DNA of 64,000 nt from Promethearchaeota archaeon (GCA_016930515.1 JAFGGO010000027.1:21382-85381), one strand, 5' to 3'. Positions 2,760 through 46,566 are shown, counted from the first letter of the stretch. Translations and numbers: made by a program. Notes: generated by a model from the letters alone, not told the origin.

Positions 2760-2861
2760 CTTTTATTCTCACTTTATTTCACAATAGGAATTCCCAAAAG
2801 TAATTAGTCTAAGATTCTTAATATGTATTCCACTTAAAGAAGTAAAAAAGGATTGATCTAA

Positions 2862-3296
2862 ATGGAAGTAAACACAAATGAAATAGTATCTTGGTTTCAA
2901 AAAGGATTAAATTGCTCTCAGTTCGTTTTATCTCGGTTTGGACCACGATTTGGTATAAACGAGCAATGTAGTTTAAAGATAGCAGGTGGATTTGGAGGTG
3001 GAATGACGATGGGAAATACTTGTGGCTCAATTACTGCTGCATTTATGGTTATTGGACTCAAGTTTGAAAAGATCAATGAGGAAAACACAAGCCCACATGA
3101 AATCACTTACCAAAAGATAAGGGAGTTCGTAAATCAATTCACAAAACTCAATAAAACGATCATATGCAACCAATTAACTGGTGTGGATATGTCAACGCTC
3201 GAAGGAAGGGAAAAAGCAAGAAACGAGAATATTTTTCTAACAACCTGTCCTAAAGTAATTCAAGACTCTATAAACATTTTAGAATCCATTCTATAA
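2862..3296 (+). CDS. C_GCAxxG_C_C family putative redox protein
   Basis: NCSQ, GFGGGM, TCGSITAA, later C...C pattern. Confidence 0.85.
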   Translation: MEVNTNEIVSWFQKGLNCSQFVLSRFGPRFGINEQCSLKIAGGFGGGMTMGNTCGSITAAFMVIGLKFEKINEENTSPHEITYQKIREFVNQFTKLNKTIICNQLTGVDMSTLEGREKARNENIFLTTCPKVIQDSINILESIL

Positions 3297-3343
3297 CTTT
3301 AAACAATGTATATAGTACTAAATGATATGTAAAGGTCCAAAAT

Positions 3344-4279
3344 TTGCAAGTTAAAGAAGATATTAGCCTCACTAGAGAAGAAATTGATCAATTAATCAAG
3401 AAAAAATTAATTCTATTAAATGAGATTGATAGAAATCAAGGAAAAGGGTCCGAATATATTCGAATTCTAAGCGAGATCGCATTACTCAAGCTTGAGATTG
3501 AGGAATTCGAAGAATCTGAGAATTATTTTAAGACATGTCTGGCTTTTTTTGAAAAACAGAGCGATAATCTTGGAAAAGCTGCTGTTTTGGGTCTCTTAGG
3601 TGCCCTATTCTATAAGAAGGACCAATTTGAAGAATCTATCAATTATTATCGACAAGGAGATCTATTATACAAGGAACTCCTCCAGTTTAAAGAACAAACA
3701 ACATGCTTAATCGGAATTGGAAGCGCTTATCTGAAATTAAATAAGCTAGACGAAGCAAGCGATATATTTTTTAAATGTAGTGCAATTTGTGCTGACAACC
3801 ACGATGTCTACGGATTATTAGAATGCCTTCAAAATTTAATATTTATCTACGAAAAAGAAGAAAAATGGGATGTTGTCTTTGAATTGTACAAAAAAACCCT
3901 TAAAGCTTTCAAGGAATTAAAAGACCGACAAGGCATGATCGTATCGTATTTTAACTTGGGAATATTAAAAAAAAAAAAAAATTACGAGGAAGCGTTAATC
4001 TATTTCAAAAAAGGAACAAATGTGGCAATTGATTCAAACTATTCTGAATTAATAGTAAAAGGGCTAAGTTATATAGCCGAATGCTTGTTCTATACGGGTA
4101 AAATAAGAGATGCAACGAATCAATTGATAAAAAGCCTCCATTTAGCTGAAGAAATTAAAGCAAAAAACGCGATTATACAAATCTCAGTGTTGTTAAAATC
4201 GTTTGGGCTTAGTGAAACTGATATCCAAGAAAGCCTTAAAAAATATCGCGAAGATAGGAAAATAACGAAAAATAAATAA
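3344..4279 (+). CDS. Tetratricopeptide-repeat protein
   Basis: Repeated ~40-aa helical units (LGxLGAxFY...YxEA/S..Y). Confidence 0.8.
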   Translation: MQVKEDISLTREEIDQLIKKKLILLNEIDRNQGKGSEYIRILSEIALLKLEIEEFEESENYFKTCLAFFEKQSDNLGKAAVLGLLGALFYKKDQFEESINYYRQGDLLYKELLQFKEQTTCLIGIGSAYLKLNKLDEASDIFFKCSAICADNHDVYGLLECLQNLIFIYEKEEKWDVVFELYKKTLKAFKELKDRQGMIVSYFNLGILKKKKNYEEALIYFKKGTNVAIDSNYSELIVKGLSYIAECLFYTGKIRDATNQLIKSLHLAEEIKAKNAIIQISVLLKSFGLSETDIQESLKKYREDRKITKNK

Positions 4280-4326
4280 TTAAATTGACTTTACTTTAAT
4301 AGTAAATTATTTATTCTCTATTAAAG

Positions 4327-5745
4327 ATGAAAAATTGTCCATTTTGTAATCAAGAAGTGAGAGAAACCGATAAGTTTTGCATTCATTGCAAGAAACCACT
4401 TTTAACATTCATCTCGCAGAAGGAGGGTTCCTTAAACAAGAGCTTGCAACCATATAATTACTTACAGTACGAGGACGAGGATCAAGACGAGGAGTTCAAT
4501 ATTTCTGAAATCGATAGCGATGTCATTGACAGAAAAATAAGAAAAATAAGTGCCTCTTTAGAAGCAGCGCAAGCTTCGGGGATTACAACTGGGGATTTAT
4601 TGCTAAAAAAGGCTTCTTTATACTATCAAAAAAGAGATCTCGGAACTTCTGCAAAAATTGTTGAATTAGCTCTTAACTCTTTCGATTCCGAAAACGATCT
4701 GATGAATGTTGCTATATGCCATAACGAACTAGGTTTAATTCAAGAGGATATAGGCATTTACGATGAAGCTATCTATCAGTTTGATAGAGCGATTGACATT
4801 CTTAAAAATCTCGGAGATTCTCAAAAATTAATAAGAACATATAATAACATCGCAAATATTTACCATTTAATTAAAGATTTTGAGCATTCTTACGAATATT
4901 ATAAAAAAGCCATTGACCTAGCTCGAAAAGAAAATCTCGTCATGGAAGAAGTCAAATCGTCCTCAAATTTGGTTGATGTATTATTCTCCTTTAAAAATTA
5001 CGATTCGATCGAAAAAATTCTCGATAGAAACGCGTTTATTTTTAATCAAATCGGAGATATTAATGGTACAATTATTACTTTGATAAAATACGGGAAATTA
5101 AATTTCCACAAAGGACCAAATTACTTCGATAAAGCGCTTAAATTATTTACCGATGCCTTAGATCTTGTTGAAAAGATTAGCGAAAGAATTTCAATCTATT
5201 CAAAATCACAATTGGAATGGGAGTGCTATTTATACATTGGAAAAGTGTATTATAAGAGAAAAAATTACGAAAAAGCCGAAATTAATATTTTAAGAAGCCT
5301 TGAATCACTACGGACCCATGAAATTGAAGATAGTCTTAACCAAGCGTTAGTTTTGAAACTAATAGGTAAGATTTATTCTGCAAAAAATAATTTTATTAAA
5401 GCAGTGGAATATTTCGATTTATCTTCGATAACTTACGAAAAATTCGGGGCATTATATGACAAGGCGTTGGTTAAGATATTGGCTGCTCAAGATATCATGG
5501 AAAGCAACAATGACGATTCAAAAGCCTTAAATTATTATGAAGATGCATTAAATATATTTCAAGAGCAAGGATATGATAAAGAAGTGGCAGATACCTCTCA
5601 AACTTTAGGGGATATTTATATAAAGCTTAATTTGGAAGGAATAGCTCTTGAATATTTTGAAAAAGCTAAAGATACTTACCAAATTTTAAAAGATAAGTTT
5701 AATTCGCAACTCGTTAAGGAAAAAATACAATCCTTGAAAACTTAA
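4327..5745 (+). CDS. Zinc-ribbon plus TPR-repeat protein
   Basis: N-terminal CPFC...FCIHC ribbon followed by many TPR units (NELGLI, NNIANIY, YIGKVY, TLGDIY). Confidence 0.85.
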   Translation: MKNCPFCNQEVRETDKFCIHCKKPLLTFISQKEGSLNKSLQPYNYLQYEDEDQDEEFNISEIDSDVIDRKIRKISASLEAAQASGITTGDLLLKKASLYYQKRDLGTSAKIVELALNSFDSENDLMNVAICHNELGLIQEDIGIYDEAIYQFDRAIDILKNLGDSQKLIRTYNNIANIYHLIKDFEHSYEYYKKAIDLARKENLVMEEVKSSSNLVDVLFSFKNYDSIEKILDRNAFIFNQIGDINGTIITLIKYGKLNFHKGPNYFDKALKLFTDALDLVEKISERISIYSKSQLEWECYLYIGKVYYKRKNYEKAEINILRSLESLRTHEIEDSLNQALVLKLIGKIYSAKNNFIKAVEYFDLSSITYEKFGALYDKALVKILAAQDIMESNNDDSKALNYYEDALNIFQEQGYDKEVADTSQTLGDIYIKLNLEGIALEYFEKAKDTYQILKDKFNSQLVKEKIQSLKT

Positions 5746-6685: not shown

Positions 6686-8290
6686 TCACGGAAGTAAACC
6701 AAGAGAATTTCGCATTTTTTTTTCTGTATCCGTGGTTAATAAGTCTAGGTAGCGTAAAGAGGATATTCCCTTCATCAAACGCTTTTTTATATTTGGATCT
6801 TTTGAAAGGTTCTTGTTCTCGCAGCAAAATTCAAAATTTGACCTTAAAATCATGTCGTCTTCGATTTTATTAACTAAAATTGCTTGAAAATCTTGTAAAG
6901 GGCTTGAAAATATTTCGTAAATCGAACTTGAATCTCCAATTCGTCCTGGAAATACAATACTAATTCGCTCTTCCATCATCTCCTCGTCTTCAATGAACAT
7001 TGCGTATAGTGGCATGTACATCCATCGAATAGGCATTGCAAAGAAATCGGACTTATTGTCGGGTATGGACCATTGTTTCAGTTCTTCGGCTTCTATTAGA
7101 CAAGTATTGTGTTTTTGAACGATTATTTCTGTAATTTGCTTGTACAACGCCTCTAAATCGTCTCTATACGATGTAATCTCTATGACTGCGCTTTCTTGTT
7201 CCTTTTCAATCGTGGTTATTTGGTGATTTCTATCCTGTAGGCGCGTCTGTAAATCTATCTCGTGTTCCTTCAGTTTTTGAGACGCCCTTTCGTCAACTGC
7301 TTTAGCTTTTTCTAAAATATCTTCATATTTTTGCGATAAATTATTTATACTTTCTAAAAGTCTCGTTCCTTGTTCTTTCAGATAATTAAAATGAACTAAA
7401 AATTTTGGTTGAAGATCTTCAAAGACTTTTGATTTGAGACTTTCGTCTCGAGTGAAAAATTTATTTTTTTTTATCATGTCTTCCAAGTTTCTTTCAACGG
7501 TTAAAAAAAGCGTCGAAACACTCTCAATGATTTTTTTCTTTTCTTCCACCCTCCAATTTTCGATCTCGTCCCCCTTATAATCCTTTTGAATTTCAACTTG
7601 TGAATCATCTATTAATGAGGATGTTTTCTTGAGTTGGGAACTAAATCTTTGTTTCACATCAGAAAGATTAACTTTTAAATCTAATAGTTTTTTGTCAACG
7701 AATTTACTGATTAATTCTATTTGATTTTTCCATCTTAGTGCGTTTCCTTTCATTTGTTCGAAGGTTTTTCTGTATTTTTCAGCAATGTCAATGGCCATTT
7801 CTGTTGATAACTTTACATTTAAAGGCATGTAATTCGAAACAGGTTCAATTTTAATAGTTGGGAGCATTTCAACGATTGTTTTAAGGAAATCAGGCGATAA
7901 CAAGCCCTCAATCTCGAGTGATTGGAACTCGGAATCTTCGGACTCGCTTATAATTTCGGCGTCAACATCTTTATATGTTATAATATTTATAATTTGCTGT
8001 AATTGGTCTTTTTCGGTTTTTGTTCCCGTATCGCGTAAAAGGTGTCCAATTAATGGTTGTCTGGGAGGATTAGACAATTTTCCTTTTTTTGACAAGATCG
8101 CTAGACCATCTAATAGTATATGAGTTGAAATAGTTCCCGGAACGCTAGCAAAAGGCCAGAGAAGTCTTGAAAAAGAGAGTATCTTTTCTCCATTCTTTAT
8201 ATCCCTCGTCAATAAATAATAAGCGATGGTTAATTCCTCGTCATCGCGTATGGGTGGCAAATTAGGATTCTTTCGTAAAAAAAAAGGCAA
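6686..8290 (-). CDS. Hypothetical protein with long central coiled coil
   Basis: 534 aa; globular-looking N and C ends flanking ~250 aa of K/E/Q-rich heptads. Confidence 0.75.
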   Translation of the reverse strand: MPFFLRKNPNLPPIRDDEELTIAYYLLTRDIKNGEKILSFSRLLWPFASVPGTISTHILLDGLAILSKKGKLSNPPRQPLIGHLLRDTGTKTEKDQLQQIINIITYKDVDAEIISESEDSEFQSLEIEGLLSPDFLKTIVEMLPTIKIEPVSNYMPLNVKLSTEMAIDIAEKYRKTFEQMKGNALRWKNQIELISKFVDKKLLDLKVNLSDVKQRFSSQLKKTSSLIDDSQVEIQKDYKGDEIENWRVEEKKKIIESVSTLFLTVERNLEDMIKKNKFFTRDESLKSKVFEDLQPKFLVHFNYLKEQGTRLLESINNLSQKYEDILEKAKAVDERASQKLKEHEIDLQTRLQDRNHQITTIEKEQESAVIEITSYRDDLEALYKQITEIIVQKHNTCLIEAEELKQWSIPDNKSDFFAMPIRWMYMPLYAMFIEDEEMMEERISIVFPGRIGDSSSIYEIFSSPLQDFQAILVNKIEDDMILRSNFEFCCENKNLSKDPNIKKRLMKGISSLRYLDLLTTDTEKKMRNSLGLLP

Positions 8291-17492: not shown

Positions 17493-18443
17493 TTAAATAG
17501 AGCTTCTCAAAAAGTCTTCAAGATTCTTGAGTTCTTCTCCATTCAAGGCGTTCATGACACCATTGAAAACTTCGGGTTTTTTATTTTTTGTAACGGCCAT
17601 GATTACTCCAACATCTTCGAGTTGTTTGATAAGCACATAAGAATCGTCAGATTCGTAAACGATAGTTGATAACGAAAGAGGTGATGGATTCGTGTTTACG
17701 AGCAGCATGACTTTTGAATAAATCTGATAAAGATTAGAGTCTAATGTTCCCATTTCCAATTTCATAAATTGTAGTGGTTTACTATCGAATTTTCCTATAG
17801 TTGAAGCGATGAGCAAGCCATCTGGCTGGTTGAATAACATGTATTCTGAGAGCGATTCTGATTTCAATTCGTTTAACAAATGTCTTATCTTTCCTAATCT
17901 TTGCATGGATAATGTGTTTTTTTGAATCTCGTAATCTAAAATTTCAATTAGTCTGTGTTGGGCGCTCCCTTCCTTTACGGATACGGGAGTAAAAACAATC
18001 TTTTCTTTAATTTCTTTTTCCAAGTCTTTTGATAGAATCTCGTAGTAATCGTCTTCCCTAGAATTGTCCAAGTCAATCTTGTTCAATAATACATATATCT
18101 TATCTACATGGGGGCTAAATTCCCATACATACGTGTGAAATTTATCGAAGATATCTTTTACATTAGCCTCTGGAGCAGCAGTATCCACCATAAATATTGC
18201 CGTGGTAATCTCTGAAAAGATCAACTCGCGTTGGGATTCAGAAAAATACCTTTCCATGTAGCGTTCTTGCCCTCCAGCGTCCCAAATGTTTAACTCCATG
18301 ATACCTCGAAAGATAAAATTTTCTCGAGAAACGCCTTTGGTCGGCTTGAGGTTTATGACTTTCATGAAATTATATCCGAGACAAGTTGTTCTCATCAAGC
18401 TTGTTTTTCCCGCGTTTTGAGGACCAAAAATGAGAATTTTCAC
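17493..18443 (-). CDS. Rag/Gtr1-like small GTPase with C-terminal roadblock-like domain
   Basis: G1 GPQNAGKTS, G2 PT, G3 WDAGGQ followed by Rag-type ERYMERYF..QRELIFS, G4 NKID; C-terminal DGLLIAST roadblock-like region; GTG start with GGAGGT SD. Confidence 0.85.
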   Translation of the reverse strand: MKILIFGPQNAGKTSLMRTTCLGYNFMKVINLKPTKGVSRENFIFRGIMELNIWDAGGQERYMERYFSESQRELIFSEITTAIFMVDTAAPEANVKDIFDKFHTYVWEFSPHVDKIYVLLNKIDLDNSREDDYYEILSKDLEKEIKEKIVFTPVSVKEGSAQHRLIEILDYEIQKNTLSMQRLGKIRHLLNELKSESLSEYMLFNQPDGLLIASTIGKFDSKPLQFMKLEMGTLDSNLYQIYSKVMLLVNTNPSPLSLSTIVYESDDSYVLIKQLEDVGVIMAVTKNKKPEVFNGVMNALNGEELKNLEDFLRSSI

Positions 18444-18808
18444 GATCTGATACCTCCTTGACTAATGGTTGTTTTAAAGGTCATTTTTTTTAAGTATTGT
18501 GCGTGATGGTTTATAAATTTCATAATCAAGCGTGAATTATGTTTTAATATTTTCAGAATTATATTCCTTTTTTTAAAATATTATACTAATTTTTGCTATT
18601 TAATATTTTTCTTTTTTTCGCCTTCTTTTCTTTTTATTTTATAAATACTCACTTGAATCGCATATGAAATCTCATTTAGAACTAGATAAACTCATTTTTC
18701 CCTCTAATTCTATCAATAGTTGAAATGTTTTAAGGATTGATAAAAACTCGAGGGACAAGAGCGATTGAAATAAATATAATTAAATATTTTGTTTTTTAAG
18801 TATTCAAA

Positions 18809-19366
18809 ATGCACGATAAAAAAACGAGAATGAGAAAAATGGATCTTTTAAAATACATACGCAATGTACCTAATTGGCCAAAAGAAGGAATTCAATTCAA
18901 GGATATAACGACATTATGCGTGGCACCCGAAGCTTTTAAAGAGGCTTGCGATCGATTAGTTACACATTACAAGGGAAAGGGAATCACTAAAGTTGCGGCG
19001 ATTGAAGCGAGAGGATATGTCTTTGGATCAGTCATCGCCTATTTAATAAACGCAGGTTTCGTACTTGTCAGAAAGCCAGGAAAACTGCCCGCCGACACAA
19101 TACAAGAAACTTACGAGCTTGAATATGGAACTGATACCATCGAGATGCACAAGGGCTCGATCAAAGAGGGTGAAAAAGTCCTCATTATAGACGACTTATT
19201 AGCAACTGGTGGAACCGCAAAAGCTGCAGCAAATTTGGTTGAAAAAGCTGGAGGTGTCGTTGCAGGAATCGGGTTCGTGATTGAGCTCACGGGGAGCTTA
19301 CGCGGGCGGGAAAAACTTGAAGGATACGAAATATTTTCGTTATTAGATATCTCTGTAGAAGAGTAA
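18809..19366 (+). CDS. apt: Adenine phosphoribosyltransferase
   Basis: P.WPKEGIQFKDIT, IEARGY, VRKPGKLP, YELEYGTD, PRPP-binding IIDDLLATGGT. Confidence 0.97.
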   Translation: MHDKKTRMRKMDLLKYIRNVPNWPKEGIQFKDITTLCVAPEAFKEACDRLVTHYKGKGITKVAAIEARGYVFGSVIAYLINAGFVLVRKPGKLPADTIQETYELEYGTDTIEMHKGSIKEGEKVLIIDDLLATGGTAKAAANLVEKAGGVVAGIGFVIELTGSLRGREKLEGYEIFSLLDISVEE

Positions 19367-19415
19367 TTTTTTTAATATCTGATTTTAAACTCTTTTTTAT
19401 TTTTTAACATTAGTT

Positions 19416-20294
19416 TTATAAAATAGCACCTTCTAATGAGTGGTGGCAGGAACAATCCTTATCCATATCAATATTTGGGATAACAGTTTTCAATAATTTA
19501 TTCAAATTTTCTGCGTTTTTAGCGATAGTCTCAAGGACCTCAGTCACATTTACTTCTAACTTGTTTATCGGGTTCCCGCATCTCTTGCATTTCAAAGCTT
19601 GTTCTACAATTCCACAATTTTGGCACTCTCCTGCCCATACATCCAAATCGGTCACCATCGCAACGCAACAATAACACATTTCCATTTCAGCAGCAAGAAC
19701 AACTTCTGGATATGTAGTCATTCCAACTACATCCGCCTCCCATTTGCGGAACAATTTAGATTCTGCTCTTGTAGAAAATCGTGGTCCCTCAATACAAACA
19801 TAAGTGCCACCTTTTTGTATCATCATTCCTTTATTATTTTTACCTGATTCAAAGAACAAGTCGTTTAAATAACTGCAATACGGTTCTGCTTGTCTAATGT
19901 GACAAACCTGACCTCCTTCGTAAAAACTATCTTTTCGATTTTTTGTTCTATCGATATATTGATCAACGAGAATAAATTTTCCTTTTTGGTGCTCGATCTT
20001 TAATGATCCTACGGCGGAAGGAGATATCACGAATTTAACGCCCATATTTTTAAGCGCCCACATATTAGCCCTGAAATTCAGCTTGTGTGGGGGGATATCG
20101 TGTCCCATTCCATGCCGAGTCAAAAATGCTATTTTTTTACCAGCAAATCTCCCAACTTTCAGATGGTCTGAAGTGCGACCATAAGGTGTATACGATTTGA
20201 TTTCTTCCATATCTTCAAGATAGAGCTCGGATCCTGTTCCTCCAATAATTCCAATAGCAACTTTGCTTTCTTCATATTTCATGGTTATACTCAA
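19416..20294 (-). CDS. mtnP: 5'-methylthioadenosine/purine nucleoside phosphorylase (MTAP family) with CxxC...CxxC insert
   Basis: IGIIGGTG, RHG.GH.IPPH.LNFRAN, AVGSL, EGPRFSTRAES, VGMT..PE, VTDLD, C-terminal CSC; start may be ATG at 20282. Confidence 0.9.
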   Translation of the reverse strand: MSITMKYEESKVAIGIIGGTGSELYLEDMEEIKSYTPYGRTSDHLKVGRFAGKKIAFLTRHGMGHDIPPHKLNFRANMWALKNMGVKFVISPSAVGSLKIEHQKGKFILVDQYIDRTKNRKDSFYEGGQVCHIRQAEPYCSYLNDLFFESGKNNKGMMIQKGGTYVCIEGPRFSTRAESKLFRKWEADVVGMTTYPEVVLAAEMEMCYCCVAMVTDLDVWAGECQNCGIVEQALKCKRCGNPINKLEVNVTEVLETIAKNAENLNKLLKTVIPNIDMDKDCSCHHSLEGAIL

Positions 20295-35996: not shown

Positions 35997-36284
35997 GTGA
36001 TAAAAACGACAGATACTAAAAATGGAGATGAGGCCCCTAAGACGGGTGTTGAGAAAATAATTGATTTCTTTAACTCCCTTGAAACAAATAAACCCCTCGC
36101 TATCGCGGAAATCGTGGAAAAAACGGGATTGTCCTGGACTTTCGTGAGAAAAACTCTTGAACAACTGAAAGAAGACTTTATTGGTCTGAATTTTGAAAAA
36201 TCGGGGAATACGTGGATTGCTTGGAAGGATAGGGACAGGATTGCCAAGAAAATGGACGACACGTGCGGACATCTCTTAAAATGA
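35997..36284 (+). CDS. Small winged-HTH protein
   Basis: LAIAEIVEKTGLSWTFVRKTLEQL helix-turn-helix plus wing (EKSGNTWIAW). Confidence 0.75.
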   Translation: MIKTTDTKNGDEAPKTGVEKIIDFFNSLETNKPLAIAEIVEKTGLSWTFVRKTLEQLKEDFIGLNFEKSGNTWIAWKDRDRIAKKMDDTCGHLLK

Positions 36285-36382
36285 TTTTTAAGCCTCTATT
36301 CTTGAAAGATTCCGATCGTTTAATTATCAAGAATTTTAAAGTAAAAAAGGATGTTTATTGAATATAGAATTAACCGAAAAAA

Positions 36383-36901
36383 GTGAAAAAAATGAATGAA
36401 ATGGAAGAAAAAGTTTTAGAAAAAGCGTTTGAACTTGGACAAAAATACGAAAAAAAAAATACTGGCTGCGCACAAAGCGTTATTGCCGCACTCTTTGACG
36501 CTTTAGATATATGGAACGAAGATATTTTTAAATCTGCTAGCGGTCTGGCCGACGGATTGGGATTAACGGGAGATGGGTCTTGTGGAGCTCTCGTTGGGGC
36601 TTCCATGGTAATTGGATTCTTGTTTGGACGAGAACGGAAGGATTTTGGAGACATTCAAAAACCAATAAAATCCTACATGCTCGTTAAACAACTTCACGAC
36701 CAATACATTCAAGAATACGGGTCCTGTCGCTGCCACGATGTCCAAAAGACTTTTACAGGAAAAACATGGAACATGTGGAACCCCGAAGATTTAAAAAATG
36801 CAATGGAACCTGGAGGCTTGTTAGATCATTGCCCTCAACTTGTTGGGAATGTAGCCCGATTAGCGTGTAAAATCATATTAGATAATGGATTCACTTTTTA
36901 G
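36383..36901 (+). CDS. C_GCAxxG_C_C family putative redox protein
   Basis: GCAQ, GLADGLG, SCGALVG, CRC, HCP. Confidence 0.88.
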   Translation: MKKMNEMEEKVLEKAFELGQKYEKKNTGCAQSVIAALFDALDIWNEDIFKSASGLADGLGLTGDGSCGALVGASMVIGFLFGRERKDFGDIQKPIKSYMLVKQLHDQYIQEYGSCRCHDVQKTFTGKTWNMWNPEDLKNAMEPGGLLDHCPQLVGNVARLACKIILDNGFTF

Positions 36902-37152
36902 TAATTTTTCAAAACTTTGTTTTACTTTTCTTTTGCTTGTTTTTTATTGGATTATTAATTTTTTTACTTTGAACTTCGCTAACGCTGTACTCTTTTAGTT
37001 TACAATGAAATTTTTCTTATTTCAAGATTTTATTGCAAAAAGTATTACCTCTCTTTCTAAATAAAAATGGAAGATTTTAGAAACCTATAATAACTGTCAA
37101 GTTGAATTATTAGATATAGGATTATTTACATGATTAGGGATGTGAATATAAA

Positions 37153-39033
37153 ATTAGAAGTAAAAAATTAAAAAAAATCACTTTTGTTTTATTCCTCTTT
37201 CCATTTCTATTTCTTGGTTTTTGGTGTTTAAACGCTCCAACCAACGGAGCAAGTGGTTTTAAAATAGAAGATATAGAGAACCCAAGAACCTCGCTCAGTA
37301 TCTCCTGGACACCTAACGGCACGGTCGTTTGCAACGCACAAAATATTCAATCAAGTGTTGAAATGATTGAAGACGGTAATGGTGGCGCTTTTATTTTATG
37401 GGAGGACACGAGAAACGGGATAACTAATATAGATCTTTATATCCAACGAATAGACCAAAATGGTGAAGCACTATGGGAAAACAACGGTACGATTGTCAGC
37501 AACGAAATGCAATATCAACAACGCGCTTCTCTTATCTCGGACGGTGATGACGGAATAATCGTGGTATGGCAAGACAATAGGGATGGTTCTGATGAAGACG
37601 ATATTTACGCACAGAAATTTAACGCATCAGGAAATCCTCAATGGGAGCTTAACGGTACGATCGTTTGCAACTCACCAGATGTTCAAGGAAGCCTTGAAAT
37701 GATAAGCGATGGTGTAGGGGGCGTAATCGTGGTTTGGCAAGACGAAAGAGATGATTCTGGAGATATCTATACCCAAAGGATAAATGATAATGGCGTTCCC
37801 CAGTGGAATGATAATGGCACGGTAATTTGTAATTATACTGGCACGCAAAGTAATCCCAAAATAATAAGTGATGGCGCTCAAGGCGCGATAATTGTATGGG
37901 TGGATGGGAGAGTCGGTACGGATATCTACGCCCAAAAAGTAGATGCTAACGGGATTTCTCAATGGACTCTTAACGGTATTGTAGTTTGTAACCAAACAGC
38001 AAGTGAATTATATCCTGAAATAGTGAGTGATGACAATGGTGGAGCCTTTGTAGCGTGGGTTCAACCAAAGCCAGGAAGTCGTAATAGAGATCTATACATT
38101 CAAAGAATCGATACCAATAGCGTTAGACAATGGGGTTCTGAAGGCAAAATCGTGAGTAATACTGATGGTGATCATTTTTTTCATCAAATAACTGCCGATG
38201 CAATCGAGGGCGTTATCGTCTCGTGGTGCGACAGTACAAACGGTGATTACGATGTCTACGCTCAGAAGTTTGACAACGATGGATCTTCACAATGGACACC
38301 TAATGGAACCGTAATTTGTAACGAAACGGGTGAACAACAATTCGTTAATATTGTTGATGACGGTATTGGAGGTGCTATTATTTCTTGGATTGATTCTCGG
38401 TCGGGAAATAATGATCTTTACATCCAGCGCGTAAATTCTGAGGGAATTTCACAATTGGCTGCAAATGGTACGGCTGTATGTAACGAATCGCACAATCAAC
38501 AGGATCTTCGGATGATAAAGGCCGATATTGACTCAATTATCATTGCGTGGCAAGACTGGAGGATAGATCGCGATATTTACGCTCAAAGAATAGAATTTTC
38601 TCAAGAACCAGAAGAACCAGAATATAATTTCGCTCCAAATGCAAACCATCCCGAAGATATTCTAACCTCTACTTCAGGAACGGAAACCATCAATTGGATA
38701 TTAACTGACGACACGGGAACTGGACAATATAGGGTACTCGTTAACGACACTTCAAATAGTTATCGTGCGTGGGTGGATTGGACTTCGTGGACGAACAATA
38801 CAAATCTTCTCGTACCCATCAATCGCACGGAATTAGGTCTTTTCAATTATTCCATTGAATATTTCGACGATCAAGGCATGTTCGGCGTGGTTGATACGGT
38901 ATTGGTATATGTGTACTCTAATACCCAGTCTAATAATATATTTGGGTTTGATGTGTTGATCACCATTGGAATTACGATGATTTCACTGTTATCCGTTGCT
39001 TTGTTTCTTAAAAAAAGGCAAAATATAAGTTAA
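37153..39033 (+). CDS. Secreted 8-repeat beta-propeller surface protein with Ig-like domain and Loki-CTERM-like anchor
   Basis: Eight ~55-aa repeats W..NGT.VCN...IISDG.GG.IIVW.D.R...DIYAQ; frame is open upstream of the tracked ATG (37363) through repeat 1 and a signal peptide (RSKKLKKITFVLFLFPFLFLGFWCL); C-terminal IFGFD-TM-KKR. Confidence 0.8.
   Translation: MRSKKLKKITFVLFLFPFLFLGFWCLNAPTNGASGFKIEDIENPRTSLSISWTPNGTVVCNAQNIQSSVEMIEDGNGGAFILWEDTRNGITNIDLYIQRIDQNGEALWENNGTIVSNEMQYQQRASLISDGDDGIIVVWQDNRDGSDEDDIYAQKFNASGNPQWELNGTIVCNSPDVQGSLEMISDGVGGVIVVWQDERDDSGDIYTQRINDNGVPQWNDNGTVICNYTGTQSNPKIISDGAQGAIIVWVDGRVGTDIYAQKVDANGISQWTLNGIVVCNQTASELYPEIVSDDNGGAFVAWVQPKPGSRNRDLYIQRIDTNSVRQWGSEGKIVSNTDGDHFFHQITADAIEGVIVSWCDSTNGDYDVYAQKFDNDGSSQWTPNGTVICNETGEQQFVNIVDDGIGGAIISWIDSRSGNNDLYIQRVNSEGISQLAANGTAVCNESHNQQDLRMIKADIDSIIIAWQDWRIDRDIYAQRIEFSQEPEEPEYNFAPNANHPEDILTSTSGTETINWILTDDTGTGQYRVLVNDTSNSYRAWVDWTSWTNNTNLLVPINRTELGLFNYSIEYFDDQGMFGVVDTVLVYVYSNTQSNNIFGFDVLITIGITMISLLSVALFLKKRQNIS
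37306..38600 (+). repeat. Intragenic tandem protein repeats (8 x ~165 bp, diverged)
   Basis: Recurrent DNA such as tggacacctaacggcacggtcgtttgcaac / tggacacctaatggaaccgtaatttgtaac and gatatttacgc(a/t)ca. Confidence 0.8.
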
Positions 39034-39101
39034 TAAAATTAATTTCTTTCTTTTTTCTTTTTTCATGTCCAATTTATTTATTTCGGTACTTCACTACTAA
39101 A

Positions 39102-39680
39102 TCAAGTGATATTGTTCAAGGTAGTACAAATTTCCTTCCAATCACGGACCCTTATTACATTGCCTTCACACGAACTTTCCTTATTCCAAGGTTGATCGTA
39201 CAATAATAAATATTTCTCTTTCATGATTTTGATTGGTTCTACCAAATTAGGATTATCGTCGATGTATATGTCAAAATCGTAAGCGAGTTTTAAGTCCCAT
39301 GGCCTTTCCTTCACGATGATAAAATCCTTATAGTGAATGCCTTCCTTAATTTCGTGAAACCTTAATTTCTTTACAAGATCGGAACGAAAACGAGGTTGTC
39401 CGGCAGAAAGGATGGATACATCGCTTTTTCCGTGTATTCTTTTCAAGTATTCGGGTGCATTATCGTCGATAAACGGGATTTCCATCATTTTTTCGTATGC
39501 TGTATAAAAAAGATTGAAAAATTCTCTTTCTGAAAGGTCCCAATCCAAATAGAAATCCCAACGAGTTATGTCGCTCTTTTTTCGGTTCGTCTTGTAAACT
39601 TCGTTAAATTCCTCGATAAATCTTTCAATCGCATCGAGCAAGACGCCGACAATGTCAACGGCTATTGCTTTTTTTGTCAT
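39102..39680 (-). CDS. HAD-superfamily 5'(3')-deoxyribonucleotidase (NT5C)-like protein
   Basis: IAVDIVGVL (motif I), IYIDDNP (motif IV), LLYDQPWN...RV.DW.EI. Confidence 0.8.
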   Translation of the reverse strand: MTKKAIAVDIVGVLLDAIERFIEEFNEVYKTNRKKSDITRWDFYLDWDLSEREFFNLFYTAYEKMMEIPFIDDNAPEYLKRIHGKSDVSILSAGQPRFRSDLVKKLRFHEIKEGIHYKDFIIVKERPWDLKLAYDFDIYIDDNPNLVEPIKIMKEKYLLLYDQPWNKESSCEGNVIRVRDWKEICTTLNNIT

Positions 39681-39819
39681 TCTAATTGAAATAATAATCT
39701 TTAAATTTTTGATAATTTAATTTCTTATCTCTAAAAATATAGCCTTAAATTTGAGATTTTTGTTAATAAGAAATGTGATACAAATTGGTGTTGTGAGTCG
39801 TTCTCTATTGATCAAATCA

Positions 39820-39839
39820 TAGTGTGAAACTTCACACTA
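39820..39839. promoter_or_regulatory. Perfect palindrome TAGTGTGAA-AC-TTCACACTA, candidate transcription-factor operator
   Basis: 9-bp inverted repeat with 2-nt spacer in the divergent intergenic region, 67 bp upstream of the frhB-like ATG. Confidence 0.55.
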
Positions 39840-39906
39840 ACTTTTATTTGCAATCGTTAATTTTTCCACGCAATACTAAACATTATTAATACACATTGAA
39901 AAAATC

Positions 39907-40842
39907 ATGAAAGTAGAAAAATCTAGTCAAGATCTCGAAAACGAGGTAATATACGCAGGTCTTTGCATTCATTGTGGAAGCTGCAACGCTTTTTGCCCCC
40001 ACATGGACTTTAATCAGACAACTGGAGAAGCATTTGTCGTCGATGAATGCGCTGAGACCGTGGGTTTGTGCTATAATTCCTGTCCGAGGAGTTTTCTTCC
40101 CATTAAAGAAATCGAACAAAAACTCTTTGGTGAAAGCAGGATTGATTTAGGAGTGGGCGTTTACAAGGATATTATCCAAGTAAAAGCGAAAAACGATGAC
40201 ATTCTACACGCTCTCGTCGAAGCCGCCTTTAAAGAAGGCGTTATCGAGTGCTTGGTTTTAGGGGAGCCAAACGGAGCAAAACCTGCCGTATCTTTTCCAA
40301 AAATTGTCTATAATGCCAAGGACGCCAAGAAACTCATCCCGCAAAAGACTATGGACAACGCTGGTCCTTTAGTAACTGGTATTGGTCAAGCTTACAAGGA
40401 ATACAAGAAAAATATTGGAATTATCGCCAATCCGTGTCACCTACAAGGCTTAGCAAAAATTCTCGTTTCTGATTTTAACACGGGTGCCGAAAAGACATCC
40501 TTAAAGATCGCTTTTGCGTGTTCTTCTGGTGGCATGGCGGGATGCAAGTACTGCACGGACTTTTCGGGCGAATTTTCGGACATCTCGTATTCCCCTTGGG
40601 GCGCTCCCAAGCCAGAAGCCCTCTTGATCATCAGAACCGCCGTTGGTCAAAAAGTAGTGGACGCTGCGAAAAAAATGAAACTCATCGAAGTAACCAACCC
40701 GAATCCGGACTTGTCCGAGATGAAAAAGTTCCTCAACAAGAAGCGCAAGAAGAACTTCAAGACGCTCTTAGGAAAGTCGCTCGTAAGAGCCAAATACTTG
40801 GATTTCAGCTACGACGAGCTCAAGGACATCCTCGAAGAATAA
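39907..40842 (+). CDS. Coenzyme F420 hydrogenase/dehydrogenase beta-subunit (FrhB/FdhB) family protein
   Basis: N-terminal ferredoxin CIHCGSCNAFCP...C..CP, ANPCH, C..GCKYCTDFSGEFSDIS, IIRT..G. Confidence 0.85.
   Translation: MKVEKSSQDLENEVIYAGLCIHCGSCNAFCPHMDFNQTTGEAFVVDECAETVGLCYNSCPRSFLPIKEIEQKLFGESRIDLGVGVYKDIIQVKAKNDDILHALVEAAFKEGVIECLVLGEPNGAKPAVSFPKIVYNAKDAKKLIPQKTMDNAGPLVTGIGQAYKEYKKNIGIIANPCHLQGLAKILVSDFNTGAEKTSLKIAFACSSGGMAGCKYCTDFSGEFSDISYSPWGAPKPEALLIIRTAVGQKVVDAAKKMKLIEVTNPNPDLSEMKKFLNKKRKKNFKTLLGKSLVRAKYLDFSYDELKDILEE
40789..40842 (+). repeat. Direct repeat copy 1 (current 3' end of the frhB-like gene)
   Basis: gccaaatacttggatttcagctacgacgagctcaaggacatcctcgaagaataa; 46/54 identical to 44558-44611 with a 20-bp exact core at 40795-40814. 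Confidence 0.92.
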
Positions 40843-40873
40843 TTCTTTAATTTTCTTTCTTTTAACTTTTTTT
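40843..40873 (+). terminator. T-rich archaeal terminator-like tract after the frhB-like gene
   Basis: ttctttaattttctttcttttaactttttttc directly after the stop; a similar tract follows the second repeat copy (44612-44640). Confidence 0.5.
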
Positions 40874-41101
40874 CACAATCTCCATCAATTTAAAATGAAA
40901 TTTTTAAAGTGTAGATTTTAATGACAATTTCCTAATTTTTGTCGACTCCGGGTTCCTAAATAAATCAACGATTCCTCAGCAATTTTTGGCCCTCTCGCAA
41001 AATTTAAATAGTATTTTATAACATATAATACCAAGGATTCAAATTAGGCTTCGATTTTTCCTTTAAACATGGAAAAAAATAGTCATCGTGCGAGACAACT
41101 C

Positions 41102-42619
41102 ATGAGAATTTTAATAGACACGAACATCCTCATTGCGAGAGAGAACCATCACATAATTGAACAAGAACTTCAAACGCTTTTAAGGGTCGTTCAAGAATTA
41201 AAACACGAAACGCTCGTCCATCCAAAATCTATTGAAGATGTTAGAAGAGATCCAAACGAAATCCGAAGAAACATTACCCTCTCAAAACTCAACACTTATC
41301 AAATTTTAGAACACGCTCCAAGACCGTCCACAGATCCAAGCTATATCGAGAAAATAGGAAATCCAAAAAATATCAACGACGAAATAGACGATTCCTTATT
41401 ATTTGCTGTCCACAAGAACGCCGTTAATTTTCTCATCACGGAAGATCTTGGCATTCAGAAGAAAGCAAGGAAGCTTAACATCTCTGATAGGGTTCTGAAA
41501 ATCGTTGAGGCATTAGACCTTTTCAAGAGAGATATCCCCAGGGCGATCAAATTACCTCCTTCACTACAAGGTACTACAATGGCTAATTTAGACATCGAAG
41601 ATTCCATATTCGAATCTCTTCGAGAAGATTATCCGGATTTCAATATATGGTACACAGATAAAGCAAGAGAAGGAAGAAATTGTTGGATATATCGCAGGAA
41701 CGACGGATCCTTAGGTGCTGTTTTAATTTATAAAATGGAAGACGAAGCAAACGAAAACGCCAGACCTCCATTAGAAAAGAAAAGGCGCCTCAAAATCGCA
41801 ACTATGAAGGTCACCTATGTTGGTTACAAAATCGGCGAGTTATTGCTAAAATTGTCTTTTGAATACGCCATTAAAAACAATATTTCAGAAATATATTTAA
41901 CGCATTTTACCCGAAAAGACGATTATTTAGTTGATTTAATCGAGCAATATGGGTTTAACAAAGTATCAACCATTCATCGAGATTGGACGGAACAACCCGA
42001 AGATGTTTATATTAAAAAGATTTTTATTGAGAAAAAAGACATTCGCGATCTTACACCGTTAGATATCTCGAAGAATTTTTATCCTAATTTTTACGATGGC
42101 ATAAAAATTAACAAATTTATCGTTCCAATTCAACCAGAGTATTTTAGACTTCTATTTACTGATTTTCCCATAAGACAAACAACGATAAGCGAGTTTGCTG
42201 GAGATTTTATCATAGAAGGAAATACCATTAAGAAAGCATATTTAAGCCATTCTGCATCGAAAAAAATGAATCCAGGTGATATTCTTTTGTTTTATCGGTC
42301 TGGAGATTTTAAAGGCGTATTATCTCTAGGAGTAATTGAAAATGTGGAATACGATATGCAAGATCCAAATGAAATTTTTTCGATAGTTGGAAAGCGCACC
42401 GTTTATTCGTTCGCTGAAATTGAAAAAATTTCCCAAGAAAAAACAACGGTAATTATTTTTTCCCATCACTTCCATTTTAAAACTATTGTGGAATATGACA
42501 AACTATTAAAAGAAAAAATCCTTACTGGTCCATCTCAATCAATAACAGAGATCGACCAAGAAAAATATCTAAAAATAAAAAAATTAGGTGGTATCGACGA
42601 ACGTTTTGCTTTCGATTAA
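41102..42619 (+). CDS. PIN-GNAT-PUA/EVE-like three-domain fusion
   Basis: PIN: ILIDTNILI...SIED...NDEIDD...LITED; GNAT: LKIATMKV..VGYKIGELLL...IYLT...LIEQYGF; C-terminal IKKAYLS...MNPGDILLFYRS; MRILID start at 41102 preferred to 41069. Confidence 0.85.
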   Translation: MRILIDTNILIARENHHIIEQELQTLLRVVQELKHETLVHPKSIEDVRRDPNEIRRNITLSKLNTYQILEHAPRPSTDPSYIEKIGNPKNINDEIDDSLLFAVHKNAVNFLITEDLGIQKKARKLNISDRVLKIVEALDLFKRDIPRAIKLPPSLQGTTMANLDIEDSIFESLREDYPDFNIWYTDKAREGRNCWIYRRNDGSLGAVLIYKMEDEANENARPPLEKKRRLKIATMKVTYVGYKIGELLLKLSFEYAIKNNISEIYLTHFTRKDDYLVDLIEQYGFNKVSTIHRDWTEQPEDVYIKKIFIEKKDIRDLTPLDISKNFYPNFYDGIKINKFIVPIQPEYFRLLFTDFPIRQTTISEFAGDFIIEGNTIKKAYLSHSASKKMNPGDILLFYRSGDFKGVLSLGVIENVEYDMQDPNEIFSIVGKRTVYSFAEIEKISQEKTTVIIFSHHFHFKTIVEYDKLLKEKILTGPSQSITEIDQEKYLKIKKLGGIDERFAFD

Positions 42620-43028
42620 ACCCAAATATGTCGAAGAGATAAAAAAAGGAAATAAAAAATACGAGTTTCGAAAGTCCCTCTGTTCTGAAGATAATTTGAG
42701 CAAGCTCAATAAGATTTTCATTTATAGTAGCGCCCCAGTAAAAAAAATCGTTGCAAGATTTGTCGTCCAAGAAATATTGAGAGATCATCCAAGAAAGTTA
42801 TGGGATAAATGCAAGGAAAACTCAGGAATCGAAGAAATGGCCTTTTTTAACTATTTTCAGAATAAAATGAGTGGTTTGGCCATTAAAATCTCTGAATTAA
42901 AATTCTTTTCTATCCCACTCAATCCAAACGATTACATTCCCAATTTTAGTCCCCCACAATCCTTTTGTTACATAGACGATATCGAGCAGACAAAAAAAAT
43001 CACCGATTTTTCGAAAAGAAAGGATTAA
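42588..43028 (+). CDS. ASCH/PUA-like domain protein
   Basis: LLSIKPKYVEEI..G.KKYEFRK (GxKxxExR), IYSSAPVKKIV, PPQSFCY; overlaps the upstream gene. Confidence 0.88.
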   Translation: MVSTNVLLSIKPKYVEEIKKGNKKYEFRKSLCSEDNLSKLNKIFIYSSAPVKKIVARFVVQEILRDHPRKLWDKCKENSGIEEMAFFNYFQNKMSGLAIKISELKFFSIPLNPNDYIPNFSPPQSFCYIDDIEQTKKITDFSKRKD

Positions 43029-43089
43029 TTATCTACTCATAGAAAACATCCTTCTCTCTATTTGTCAATTTCTCAATCTTTCAAGATTA

Positions 43090-43260
43090 AAGAAAATTGT
43101 ATTGAATGGGGATGGAGGAAAATGTGTTAAGCATGGGAAAAAAGTAGACCTCCAAAACGATCACGGTATTCCAATTAGTAAGGGCGGAAATAACAGGTCT
43201 GAAAACATTCCGCTCCTATACTCTGATTGTAATCTCAAAAAAAATGATAGAATACAATAG
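43090..43260 (+). pseudogene. Degenerate HNH endonuclease fragment
   Basis: KKIVLNGDGGKCVKHGKKVDLQNDHGIPISKGGNNRSENIPLLYSDCNLKKNDRIQ*; matches RDGGKCxxCG...DHIIPxSKGGxN...NxQLLCxxCNxxK with two Zn Cys changed to H and Y; not in the ORF track. Confidence 0.8.
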
Positions 43261-43346
43261 AGACTTATAATGGAATATTTTTATTTTAGAAATAGATGTT
43301 GCAATATTACTTCCAACTAAATTAGATTTAAAAATATTAAATAGAT

Positions 43347-44510
43347 ATGGTTTATATATTATTTTACTTGGAATCATTGATAAAAATGAATTTTCTCTCT
43401 CTTGAAAAAAAAGATGCAGAGGCTTTATGGGATAATTTATGGGATCATCAAAAAGATGCTCTTGAAAATATGAATAAATATATAACTTCAGATGGTAAAC
43501 ACCCGCTTAAGATATCAGATACTTGTCTGGATGTAAAGGACGATGCATTCAAATTAAAAGCAAATGGTAAAAATTTTAAAGTGAATATTAAATTCGATAT
43601 TAATAAATATAAATTAACTTGTACTGAATTGGATGAATATTATGATATTTCTTCAGGATTGGTTATTGAAGAAACATTTACAAAATATTTTAACAGAACG
43701 CAATCATTTAGAATTCTCCCAGAGAATACAGATGTAATATATTTCAGGGGCCAATTTTATAGCCCTAAATTGAAGATAGGGAAGTATTTTGATCCAAATA
43801 CCTATTATCTTGGACAATGTTTTGAAGTTGATAACGAAATAGGCAATTGTAAATCTGAAAAAGGGAATACTGCATATTACAAGGAAAATGATGATAAATG
43901 GGATTCAAATTCTCTCTTTGGCATCATTTTTAATAGAAGTACATCAGATACAAAGTTAGAGTTATTCGGATCACCAAATATTATTGTATGCGATGATATG
44001 AATTATGAAATTGCTGATTTCATCTTATGCGAAACCGAACCAAAAAATGAACGAGTAATATTCGTGCACGCTAAAGCCTACCGCGGAACAAAAAATAGTA
44101 CTTGTGCGACAGGTCAATTGCATGAAGTTTGTGCACAAGCTATAAAGAATTTAGGATATTTAACGAGATTTAACAATAATGAACCAAAGAATTTGAATTT
44201 ATGGGATGGATCCTGGGAATCAAACAAAAAAACAGGCAAGCGAATGGTAAAAAAACGAATCCATAGTAGAGACGCTACTGATGATGCAGAAAAAACTTGG
44301 AATAAAATCAAAAATGTCATTAATAATCCTCAATCAAACAAGGAAGTATGGTTATTTTTAGGAAATATCATCTCAAAACAATATTTTGAAAGTCAATTAA
44401 AAAATGAAGATCCACAAGCAAATGTTATTCAAGCAGCATATTTAGTCCAAGCGACTATTTCAGATATTTCATCAGTTGGGGCAAAACCACGGATATTTTG
44501 TAAAGAGTGA
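43347..44510 (+). CDS. Putative PD-(D/E)xK-like nuclease domain of an SF2 helicase-nuclease, helicase core missing
   Basis: N-terminal Q-motif-like LWDHQKDAL with no Walker A or DExH after it; C-terminal IVCDDMNYEIADF...IFVHAKA...LHEVCAQAIKNL. Confidence 0.55.
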   Translation: MVYILFYLESLIKMNFLSLEKKDAEALWDNLWDHQKDALENMNKYITSDGKHPLKISDTCLDVKDDAFKLKANGKNFKVNIKFDINKYKLTCTELDEYYDISSGLVIEETFTKYFNRTQSFRILPENTDVIYFRGQFYSPKLKIGKYFDPNTYYLGQCFEVDNEIGNCKSEKGNTAYYKENDDKWDSNSLFGIIFNRSTSDTKLELFGSPNIIVCDDMNYEIADFILCETEPKNERVIFVHAKAYRGTKNSTCATGQLHEVCAQAIKNLGYLTRFNNNEPKNLNLWDGSWESNKKTGKRMVKKRIHSRDATDDAEKTWNKIKNVINNPQSNKEVWLFLGNIISKQYFESQLKNEDPQANVIQAAYLVQATISDISSVGAKPRIFCKE

Positions 44511-44557
44511 TTAATTTAAATCTTTAAATGTATTAAAGCTAATTAAATACTCTAAAA

Positions 44558-44611
44558 GCCAAGTACTTGGATTTCAGCTACGAGGAATTAAAGGACATTC
44601 TTGAGGAATAA
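44558..44611 (+). repeat. Direct repeat copy 2 (orphan 3' end of the frhB-like gene, AKYLDFSYEELKDILEE*)
   Basis: gccaagtacttggatttcagctacgaggaattaaaggacattcttgaggaataa; exact core at 44564-44583. Confidence 0.92.
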
Positions 44612-44851
44612 AATTTTACTTCTTTTCTATTCTTTTTTTATTCAATTCTTTTTCAAAATTCTTGAGTATATTTTCCTTTTTTAATTCTAGATCAAGTGCA
44701 TTATCCCTATAAATTAAAACATAATATAATACTGAAAAAAGTCCCCCTATAGATTTAAAAAGAGTGATAAGTATAATGATCCCAAACCAAATCCAAAATG
44801 AAACATGAATATCAATAAAATCTAATTGATCCTGTAAGGTGAATTATTTTA

Positions 44852-45931
44852 ATGGAACAAGAGAATTTAGAATTATATAGAAAATTGCAGCAACACATGA
44901 ATGAGCAACCCGTAGGTTTTCCTCCTACATCGTCCGGATCTGATATTCGCTTGCTGAAATATTATTTTGATCCTGAAGAGGCTTCTATTGCTCTTGCCTT
45001 AAATTATAAAAATCAATCTTTAAGTCAAATCCACGACTCTTTTAACAAGCAATATCCCGAAAAGGACGATTTAGAGCGAATTCTCCAGAGAATGACGCAA
45101 AAGGGAATTATTAGGTGGAAATTAATTGATGGTTTAAGTCACTACCACATTTTGCCGTTAGTTGTCGGCTTGGACGAATCTCAAAATTACAATCGCTCCT
45201 TAGAATATATTCATTTGATCGTTGAATACATGATGGAAACTAGATTTCCTTTTAAACTTGTTTCGAGTCCTGTTACTCAAATGAGGACGATTCCCGTGGA
45301 AAAAAGCATTGAAGTAGAACATCTGGTTAGTAATTACGACAATATCAACTCGATCGTACAAAATATTCGAGAACCAATCGTATTACTCGATTGTATATGT
45401 CGAAAAACTCAGAACCTGCTAGGAAATAGGTGTAAGCAAACATCTCGCTTGGAAACATGTATGGCTTTTGATAATCTCGCAAAACAATGGCTTCGAAGAG
45501 GTCAAGGAAAATCAATTACCAAACAAGAGGCTCTTGAAGTTTTGAAGCAGAACCAAGAAGATGGATTGGTTTTACAACCTTCGAATTCAAAAGATCCAGA
45601 ATTTATCTGTTCTTGTTGCGGTTGTTGTTGTGGAATATTAACAGCTCAAAAATACTTGCCAAATCCCGCCAAATTCTGGGCAAGTAATTACTCCGTTGAA
45701 CTAGACGAATCCTCATGTAAGGTTTGTAAAACTTGCTTGGATTTTTGCCAGTTTGATGCCTTAAAATTTCTCGAGAAAAAGAATAAGCTAAAAATAAACT
45801 TGAAACGATGCGTTGGGTGCGGAAATTGCGTTGTATCCTGTCCAAATAATGCCCTTCGATTGATTCAAAAAGCCGAATCCTCATATACTCCAAAGGATAC
45901 AGAAGAGCTTTATGAATTAGCCAAACAATGA
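44852..45931 (+). CDS. 4Fe-4S dicluster-binding protein with N-terminal wHTH-like region
   Basis: PVGFP...LL...F.PEEA, CICR, ETC, ICSCCGCCCG, CKVCKTCLDFC and CVGCGNCVVSCP. Confidence 0.85.
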   Translation: MEQENLELYRKLQQHMNEQPVGFPPTSSGSDIRLLKYYFDPEEASIALALNYKNQSLSQIHDSFNKQYPEKDDLERILQRMTQKGIIRWKLIDGLSHYHILPLVVGLDESQNYNRSLEYIHLIVEYMMETRFPFKLVSSPVTQMRTIPVEKSIEVEHLVSNYDNINSIVQNIREPIVLLDCICRKTQNLLGNRCKQTSRLETCMAFDNLAKQWLRRGQGKSITKQEALEVLKQNQEDGLVLQPSNSKDPEFICSCCGCCCGILTAQKYLPNPAKFWASNYSVELDESSCKVCKTCLDFCQFDALKFLEKKNKLKINLKRCVGCGNCVVSCPNNALRLIQKAESSYTPKDTEELYELAKQ

Positions 45932-46017: not shown

Positions 46018-46566
46018 CTATTTCAAAATTCGATACGACTTCAAGATCTCGGTGGTAAGCTCTTCGAAAATCTTCTTGTTGTTTTCTCCCGATAGTGAAG
46101 AAGTTTCAAAAAACTTGTGGATAGAGTGTTCTTTTTGAAATTGTTCACCATCGCTTGATGGGACTTTCCTCTGGTCCTCTAAATCTGTTTTTGTTCCAAC
46201 GAGGACGTAAATAGGTTCGGTGGCATTTTCGTCCACGATCTTGAACCATTCGCTCAAATCGTCTAAACTCGTGTAACGCGTTATGTCGTAGCATAAAATT
46301 GCTCCTTGGGCTCCCCGCGCATAGCGGGGAAGGAAGAAGCGGAAACGCTGCTCTCCTGCAAAATCCCATAGCTGTAAAGTGATATTATATGAATTTCCGT
46401 CCTGATCGTCGATTTCAAGCCGATAACTCGCGAGATCGGTGCCAATCGTGATTTTCTGGGACAGGAACTTGCCGGTTAGAAGTCTTTGGATCATGGTGCT
46501 CTTTCCCACGCCGCCGTTTCCAACAACCACGACCTTGAACATGAACTTCTCGCGCCCCAACGACAT
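46018..46566 (-). CDS. Rab-like small GTPase
   Basis: FKVVVVGNGGVGKST, TIGTD, LQLWDFAGEQRFR, Y.RGA.GA, GTKTDL, FFETSS; no C-terminal prenylation Cys. Confidence 0.92.
   Translation of the reverse strand: MSLGREKFMFKVVVVGNGGVGKSTMIQRLLTGKFLSQKITIGTDLASYRLEIDDQDGNSYNITLQLWDFAGEQRFRFFLPRYARGAQGAILCYDITRYTSLDDLSEWFKIVDENATEPIYVLVGTKTDLEDQRKVPSSDGEQFQKEHSIHKFFETSSLSGENNKKIFEELTTEILKSYRILK

Follow-up and report, generated by a model that had tools for sequence, protein, structure and literature searches.

Insertion of restriction-modification (R-M) units with long target duplication was reportedly described by Nobusato et al. in 2000. Cis-mobilisable elements (CIMEs) are integrase-less islets flanked by att sites, e.g., at the 3' end of fda in Streptococcus thermophilus, for which integrative and conjugative elements (ICEs) with shared att sites supply the integrase. 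The bacterial cases of insertion with long target duplication are defence (R-M) units without mobility genes, flanked by repeats of 46 to >400 bp, some of which overlap the 3' end of a gene and which align once with the empty site; no archaeal case survived the screen by which these were collected (Furuta, Abe and Kobayashi 2010, PMC2853133). Orphaned 3' regions are located behind genes for Rhs, contact-dependent inhibition (CDI) and type VI secretion system (T6SS) effectors, for which a model of homology-facilitated illegitimate recombination (HFIR) has been proposed (PMC5361080). The integrated elements described in Asgard archaea carry tyrosine integrases or transposases and short att motifs, e.g., of 11 bp (PMC11529989; aloposons, PMC8813620). 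Here, we describe an island in a 64,000-nt stretch (the window, from whose first letter the island coordinates are counted) of contig C76 of G000, a 4.0-Mb metagenome-assembled genome (MAG) of a Lokiarchaeia-type (Asgard) Promethearchaeota archaeon. The island lies behind an frhB-like gene, between two copies of the 3' end of that gene, and looks like an archaeal example of the known integrase-free insertion of defence genes, rather than a new kind of mobile element.

The island is bounded by the following features:
39907-40842, plus strand: frhB-like gene, intact, the left anchor of the island, with a 4Fe-4S domain and an FrhB_FdhB_C domain (Pfam PF04432, E 9.6e-14)
40784-40875, plus strand: repeat copy 1, comprising the last 19 codons, the stop codon and a T-rich tract (repeat search, family D1, and genome-wide self-BLAST)
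44553-44644, plus strand: repeat copy 2, an orphan, untranslatable frhB 3' end with T-rich tract, the right edge of the island (repeat search and self-BLAST)

The wording "frhB-like" is the correct one because the protein scores 53 bits with TIGR03289, the NCBIfam frhB equivalog, against a cut-off of 331.5, so that only the Pfam C-terminal domain passes. The coding end of copy 1 (last 17 codons and stop, 40789-40842) reads AKYLDFSYDELKDILEE up to its stop, and that of copy 2 (44558-44611) reads AKYLDFSYEELKDILEE, likewise up to its stop. As the initial annotation had noticed, these ends are spaced 3769 bp apart and differ at 8 of 54 nt, seven of the mismatches being silent and one changing D to E, and they share an exact 20-nt core (40795-40814 in copy 1, 44564-44583 in copy 2). 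The extent given there, the last 18 codons, is real but too short: past the 54 nt, the similarity takes in two more similar codons (V-R versus L-K) and the T-rich tract after the stop codon, giving a full repeat of 92 nt at 75% identity when ungapped, or 90 nt at 80% by BLAST. Of the terminator-like tract proposed for each copy, a T7 run is present in both (40867-40873 and 44633-44639), but a hairpin terminator was not found behind either. Oligo-T is the usual archaeal termination signal. The frame of the orphan is without a start codon and runs into a TAA at 44540. No similarity to frhB is found 5' of 44553, where identity is at background (≤40%), and the 5' edge of the orphan at 44552/44553 is therefore sharp, which fits a breakpoint rather than gradual decay.

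The two copies are different alleles, separated by species-level divergence that was filtered by selection. The silent bias of the mismatches is not due to chance, as eight random substitutions in the 51 coding nt would give at most one amino acid change and no stop with P = 1.5e-5. Between the copies, the proportions of silent (pS) and replacement (pN) differences are 0.73 and 0.047, compared with 0.71 and 0.05 for the whole gene between G000 and G003, the closest relative, whose frhB-like protein is 92% identical in amino acids. The resulting pN/pS of ~0.06 is the same as the whole-gene value between species, which supports the earlier suggestion that both copies had been under coding selection. 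Neutral drift over such divergence would give many replacements and indels, and copy 2 was therefore a working gene end until recently. A second, closer frhB allele, P0121, is ~96% identical in amino acids to that of G000 and falls into the same 90% cluster. At residues 294 and 303, the orphan has K and E, as does P0121, while copy 1 has R and D and G003 has K and D; the amino acid reading of the orphan equals the C-terminus of P0121, i.e., of a live sister-strain allele. A sliding-window comparison of frhB identity gave no discordance at the 3' end, and 5 of the 12 differences between G000 and P0121 fall in the last 38 residues, an excess that is suggestive but post hoc and lies within a variable linker. 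At the other end of the gene, the first ~225 nt (39907-40131) are 87-88% identical to G002 and 79-83% to G003, while the remainder is closest to G003, and frhB therefore recombines between species.

Orthologues of the frhB-like gene were found in 36 of the 41 related genomes compared, and the 3769 bp between the copies are an insertion, for which G003 (contig JBHLMB010000492.1, Promethearchaeota archaeon DZ2M.159) provides the empty site. To the right of the island lie:
44852-45931, plus strand: ferredoxin-like gene of the right flank (Pfam Fer4 families)
46018-46566, minus strand: small GTPase gene, next to frhB and convergent with it in most relatives (tblastn of loci)

In G003, 161 nt separate frhB from the next gene, the homologue of the ferredoxin-like one, and the DNA aligns to window positions 39814-40862 and picks up again at 44555-44642 and 44816-45472. 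An empty site, for which the initial annotation had proposed to compare the locus across Lokiarchaeia, is thus present in G003. The P0121 sister strain is probably empty as well: P0121 and P0123, a full-length homologue of the ferredoxin-like gene with 81% identity, are each found on an NCBI contig of 3373 nt, which is too small to hold frhB, the island and the ferredoxin gene. In other congeners, frhB faces the small GTPase gene, with 56 nt or an unrelated 237-aa gene between the two. The 237-aa gene is conserved and was located in G002 (L010:1619-2332), G005 (L013:2473-3186) and, in truncated form, G004 (L011:665-1207), and it is in its place that G000 and G003 carry the ferredoxin-like gene. 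No duplicated frhB end was found within 1.5 kb in 19 orthologous loci of relatives, and no reuse of the core by related elements at the same target was seen in other genomes. A degenerate pattern scan for the 17-codon end matched no JGI metagenome contig and no viral contig and, among genome contigs, only the gene of G003 itself. A larger version of the island with a recombinase, for which the initial annotation had proposed a search, was not found among 40 relatives, and the label of an Asgard defence hotspot is unproven, as the content of the frhB-GTPase interval does vary among relatives but defence cargo occurs in G000 only. The 3.5 kb upstream of frhB (36282-39814), which encode a 556-aa secreted repeat protein and an NT5C-like 5'-nucleotidase, are also absent from G003, and strain-specific blocks therefore lie on both sides of frhB; no flanking repeat was found around this upstream block.

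The cargo between the copies consists of:
41102-42619, plus strand: PDC-M11A, an intact PIN - GNAT - EVE/PUA-like fusion (PADLOC PDLC04422, E 5e-158)
42588-43028, plus strand: PDC-M11B, a small partner gene overlapping the end of M11A (PADLOC PDLC04424, E 1e-45)
43102-43260, plus strand: HNH endonuclease remnant of 52 aa (Pfam PF01844, E 1.3e-8)
43386-44510, plus strand: PDC-S71-like gene with an in-frame internal deletion of ~665 aa (PADLOC PDC-S71, profile positions 277-589 only)

The Pfam matches of M11A itself, PIN_3 and EVE, are weak, while its homologues bear PF13470, PF00583 and PF01878; the called product begins at residue 12 of the open reading frame (ORF). M11A and M11B are both present and adjacent, an arrangement that is kept in four other genomes (G004, G015, G026, and G030) at unrelated loci, and the pair represents an intact PADLOC candidate system. 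No functional study of PDC-M11 was found in the literature, just mentions in system counts. The remaining cargo is decayed. The HNH remnant keeps two of the four Cys expected for zinc binding, the other two positions being substituted, and the homologues of the PDC-S71-like gene are ~1000 aa long, among them P0364, which carries ResIII/DEAD domains. Residues 16-57 of the island protein align with residues 1-42 of P0364 and residues 54-385 with residues 709-1040, and therefore ~665 internal residues, including the ResIII/DEAD helicase core, were lost in frame, so that the island gene is not a full-length PDC-S71. The description of all cargo as nuclease or toxin type holds for the PIN and HNH nucleases, but the island also has GNAT, EVE and ASCH-like parts, as well as the remnant of a defence gene without its helicase. 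That the island is integrase-less was correct: searches with Pfam, PADLOC, and NCBIfam profiles revealed no recombinase among its ORFs, the matches being to defence and nuclease families only. In the whole MAG, a single gene matches PF00589 (tyrosine recombinase), and it lies on another contig, C90; this genome-wide search for the recombinase expected of a site-specific island covered PF00589, serine recombinases and transposases not having been searched genome-wide. Neither a transfer RNA (tRNA) nor an Rfam RNA was found in the window, and no terminal inverted repeats were found at the island. The partial decay of the island genes next to an almost undecayed orphan suggests that an already old island may have been transferred as a block.

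Compared with the insertions with long target duplication, the frhB island has several features in common: it is 3769 bp in size (<20 kb), has no mobility gene, and is flanked by a repeat of ~92 nt (>30 bp) that overlaps the 3' end of the host gene and aligns once with the empty site of G003 (PMC2853133). In contrast to that type, it contains no R and M genes but PDC-M11, an HNH remnant and a PDC-S71 remnant, and its host is an Asgard archaeon. Moreover, the repeats there are near-identical (e.g., 44 of 46 positions), whereas here they are 80-85% identical with saturated silent divergence, and therefore represent different alleles and not a fresh duplication (PMC2853133). The order of a full gene, the cargo and then a 5'-truncated allelic end, with the conserved upstream part as the anchor, is shared with the orphans of Rhs, CDI, and T6SS effector genes, although there the 3' end encodes a variable toxin tip, for which the cargo supplies the immunity gene, while the frhB tail is conserved and unlinked to the cargo (PMC5361080). 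The Asgard elements resemble the island as variable, strain-specific blocks of defence genes in chromosomes, but the island has no integrase, transposase or short att motif (PMC8813620; PMC11529989). With regard to CIMEs, both are located at the 3' end of a protein-coding gene, have direct repeats of that end which regenerate the gene, and are without an integrase, whereas no partner element or recombinase was found for the frhB island.

The anatomy of the frhB island recurs within the same genome. Genome-wide self-BLAST of G000, with cargo supported by Pfam, identified at least five other loci with an integrase-free insert bracketed by a duplicated gene end:
G000:C159:5995-7339 (L038:2496-3840), uS11 gene on the minus strand: 0.9-kb insert, then a 46-nt orphan uS11 3' end
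G000:C7:310-2267 (L039), SAM-methyltransferase gene on the minus strand: 1.1-kb hemerythrin insert, then an 89-nt orphan 3' end
G000:C101:38118-39746 (L047): 3' orphan behind a DUF6985 gene
G000:C149:2375-6127 (L048): TumE-toxin-like cassette between a 5' orphan and the old-yellow-enzyme-like gene downstream of it
G000:C189:18530-20477 (L049): 5' orphan upstream of a Ras-like GTPase gene, with an esterase gene between

The uS11 insert carries an AbrB/MazE-like ORF and a short PIN-like ORF, i.e., VapBC-like cargo, and its orphan is 98% identical to the gene end, the differences being silent in the coding frame (GGT/GGC and TAG/TAA). No such orphan was found in the relatives searched, and no empty site was assignable because the downstream synteny is not conserved. 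The methyltransferase orphan is 89% identical and has several replacements, while the orphans on C149 and C189, which are 5' gene regions, are the mirror image of the 3' cases. No shared end motif was found among the three inserts compared (frhB, uS11, and methyltransferase). In G026, which belongs to another family, a PDC-M11 pair (minus strand, 2167-4084) is flanked by two copies of an MIT-domain gene, one full and one 5'-truncated (L036, G026:C213, 1780-4449); the full gene occupies 1780-2082, the truncated copy, still open and 89% identical in nucleotides, ~4176-4449, and a third paralogue 6986-7318. The variety of targets, gene ends, repeat sizes and cargo argues for a general homology-assisted process and not for an frhB-specific integrase. 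Another feature of G000, at G000:C66:10373-30740, is a ~190-nt sequence with ~10 copies over 20 kb, 80-89% identical, each matching the 5' region of the gene at 17637-19676; these copies resemble either a leader or promoter element that is repeated or an array of a gene family.

We favor, with a probability of roughly 0.55, a recombinase-independent, homology-assisted acquisition of the island behind the frhB-like gene, in which frhB homology served as the anchor. This comes close to one of two origins offered by the initial annotation, the homology-facilitated uptake of a foreign allele together with its cargo, and is supported by the hetero-allelic copies and the lack of a recombinase; behind the intact gene lies a second copy that is 5'-truncated, represents another allele and loses its homology abruptly, as in the orphan-end anatomy of the HFIR model. 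As to the route of entry, we infer that DNA of a related species would already have borne the island behind its own frhB allele, and that this incoming DNA would have paired with the resident frhB, while its other end may have been joined illegitimately, by HFIR, within the resident gene, 59 nt before the stop codon (the joint at 44552/44553). Alternatively, a circularised donor fragment could have entered by a single Campbell-type crossover. The working gene would thereby have kept a complete tail, with the tail and terminator of the other allele stranded at the right edge as a dead orphan. Several observations weigh against such an acquisition. Recombination would be inefficient over so short a homologous segment (~92 nt at 80-85%, the exact core being 20 nt), and the right joint is without clear microhomology, CTC with a 1-nt offset being the only possible one. 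No donor configuration was found, nor any other contig with this island or with a near-identical M11A, the best non-self match being 67%. The question raised earlier of which copy matches the alleles of relatives has an answer for the amino acids, in which copy 2 equals P0121, but the silent states of G003 match both copies in alternation and favor neither as the resident one. Finally, the probable empty site of the P0121 strain is deduced from matching contig sizes, and the source of the junctions is a MAG (94% complete, 5.3% contamination).

The other origin that had been offered was an element dedicated to the frhB-like gene, and the data do not support it: a recombinase is lacking, the one PF00589 gene lies elsewhere, and the same anatomy is found at unrelated genes with unrelated cargo. 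More broadly, a decayed or cis-mobilisable site-specific element, brought by an integrase into the frhB 3' end with a replacement end in its attP, the integrase having since been lost or acting in trans from a virus or plasmid, is unlikely, although it accounts for some of the observations. It would explain the attL/attR-like topology, the regenerated gene end and the exact core, a replacement end in attP would naturally differ from the host allele, and in an island that shows gene decay the integrase could be deleted too. However, in addition to the missing recombinase, in the island as well as in any version among the 40 relatives, scans of viral and JGI metagenome contigs did not recover the gene end, and the at least five other loci in G000 concern different genes, again with neither a recombinase nor a shared end motif. 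Moreover, K294 and E303 flank the core on opposite sides and are both present in copy 2, as in P0121, which is unlike a crossover in the core. A rather unlikely history is one in two steps, in which a long target duplication of the type described by Nobusato and by Furuta arose in situ and the working frhB was later overwritten by a diverged allele, so that the orphan keeps the old one. Defence genes are known to insert with long target duplications (PMC2853133), the similarity of frhB among congeners is a mosaic, and the orphan does read like the sister-strain allele, but two rare events are required, and the orphan must have stayed undecayed in the meantime, with no indel, no stop and at most one non-allelic change.

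Two explanations that do without an insertion event of this kind were rejected. An assembly chimera of two co-occurring strains is very unlikely, even though the sequence comes from a MAG with contamination and a sister allele with the reading of copy 2 exists. The 44552/44553 joint does not coincide with a shared k-mer, there being no similarity upstream, and a join at the 20-nt core would not give an island with a copy on either side. With just 81% identity to P0123, the ferredoxin gene downstream of copy 2 shows that the right flank is not sister-strain DNA. It is extremely unlikely that a tandem frhB paralogue decayed in place and left copy 2 as its last remnant: while a 5'-truncated gene copy downstream of a full gene is what such decay could leave, the homology stops abruptly and does not fade, the bias to silent sites speaks against long neutral decay, and neither a tandem paralogue nor a duplicated end was present within 1.5 kb in any relative.

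Homology-assisted acquisition thus being the preferred reading for the frhB island, the recurrence of its anatomy can be considered for Lokiarchaeia in general. It is quite improbable that these archaea have a dedicated, unrecognised route that installs small cassettes at gene ends, duplicating 46-165 nt of the flanking gene without a cassette recombinase. If such a route were true, it could depend on machinery that acts in trans or on a pathway driven by a nuclease or by repair, and at least six of its products would be present in G000, the frhB island among them, with the PDC-M11 pair of G026 as another. Irrespective of this, the locus is a well-delimited case, with an empty site, of an Asgard archaeon gaining defence genes without the machinery of a mobile element, and its scar records a different but related species as the origin of the incoming or displaced DNA. 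It places an intact PDC-M11 in a clearly mobile context, which supports the candidate role of this gene pair in defence. Taken with the other loci, it suggests that accessory-gene flow in Lokiarchaeia routinely takes the path of homology-assisted insertion with long duplication of the flank.

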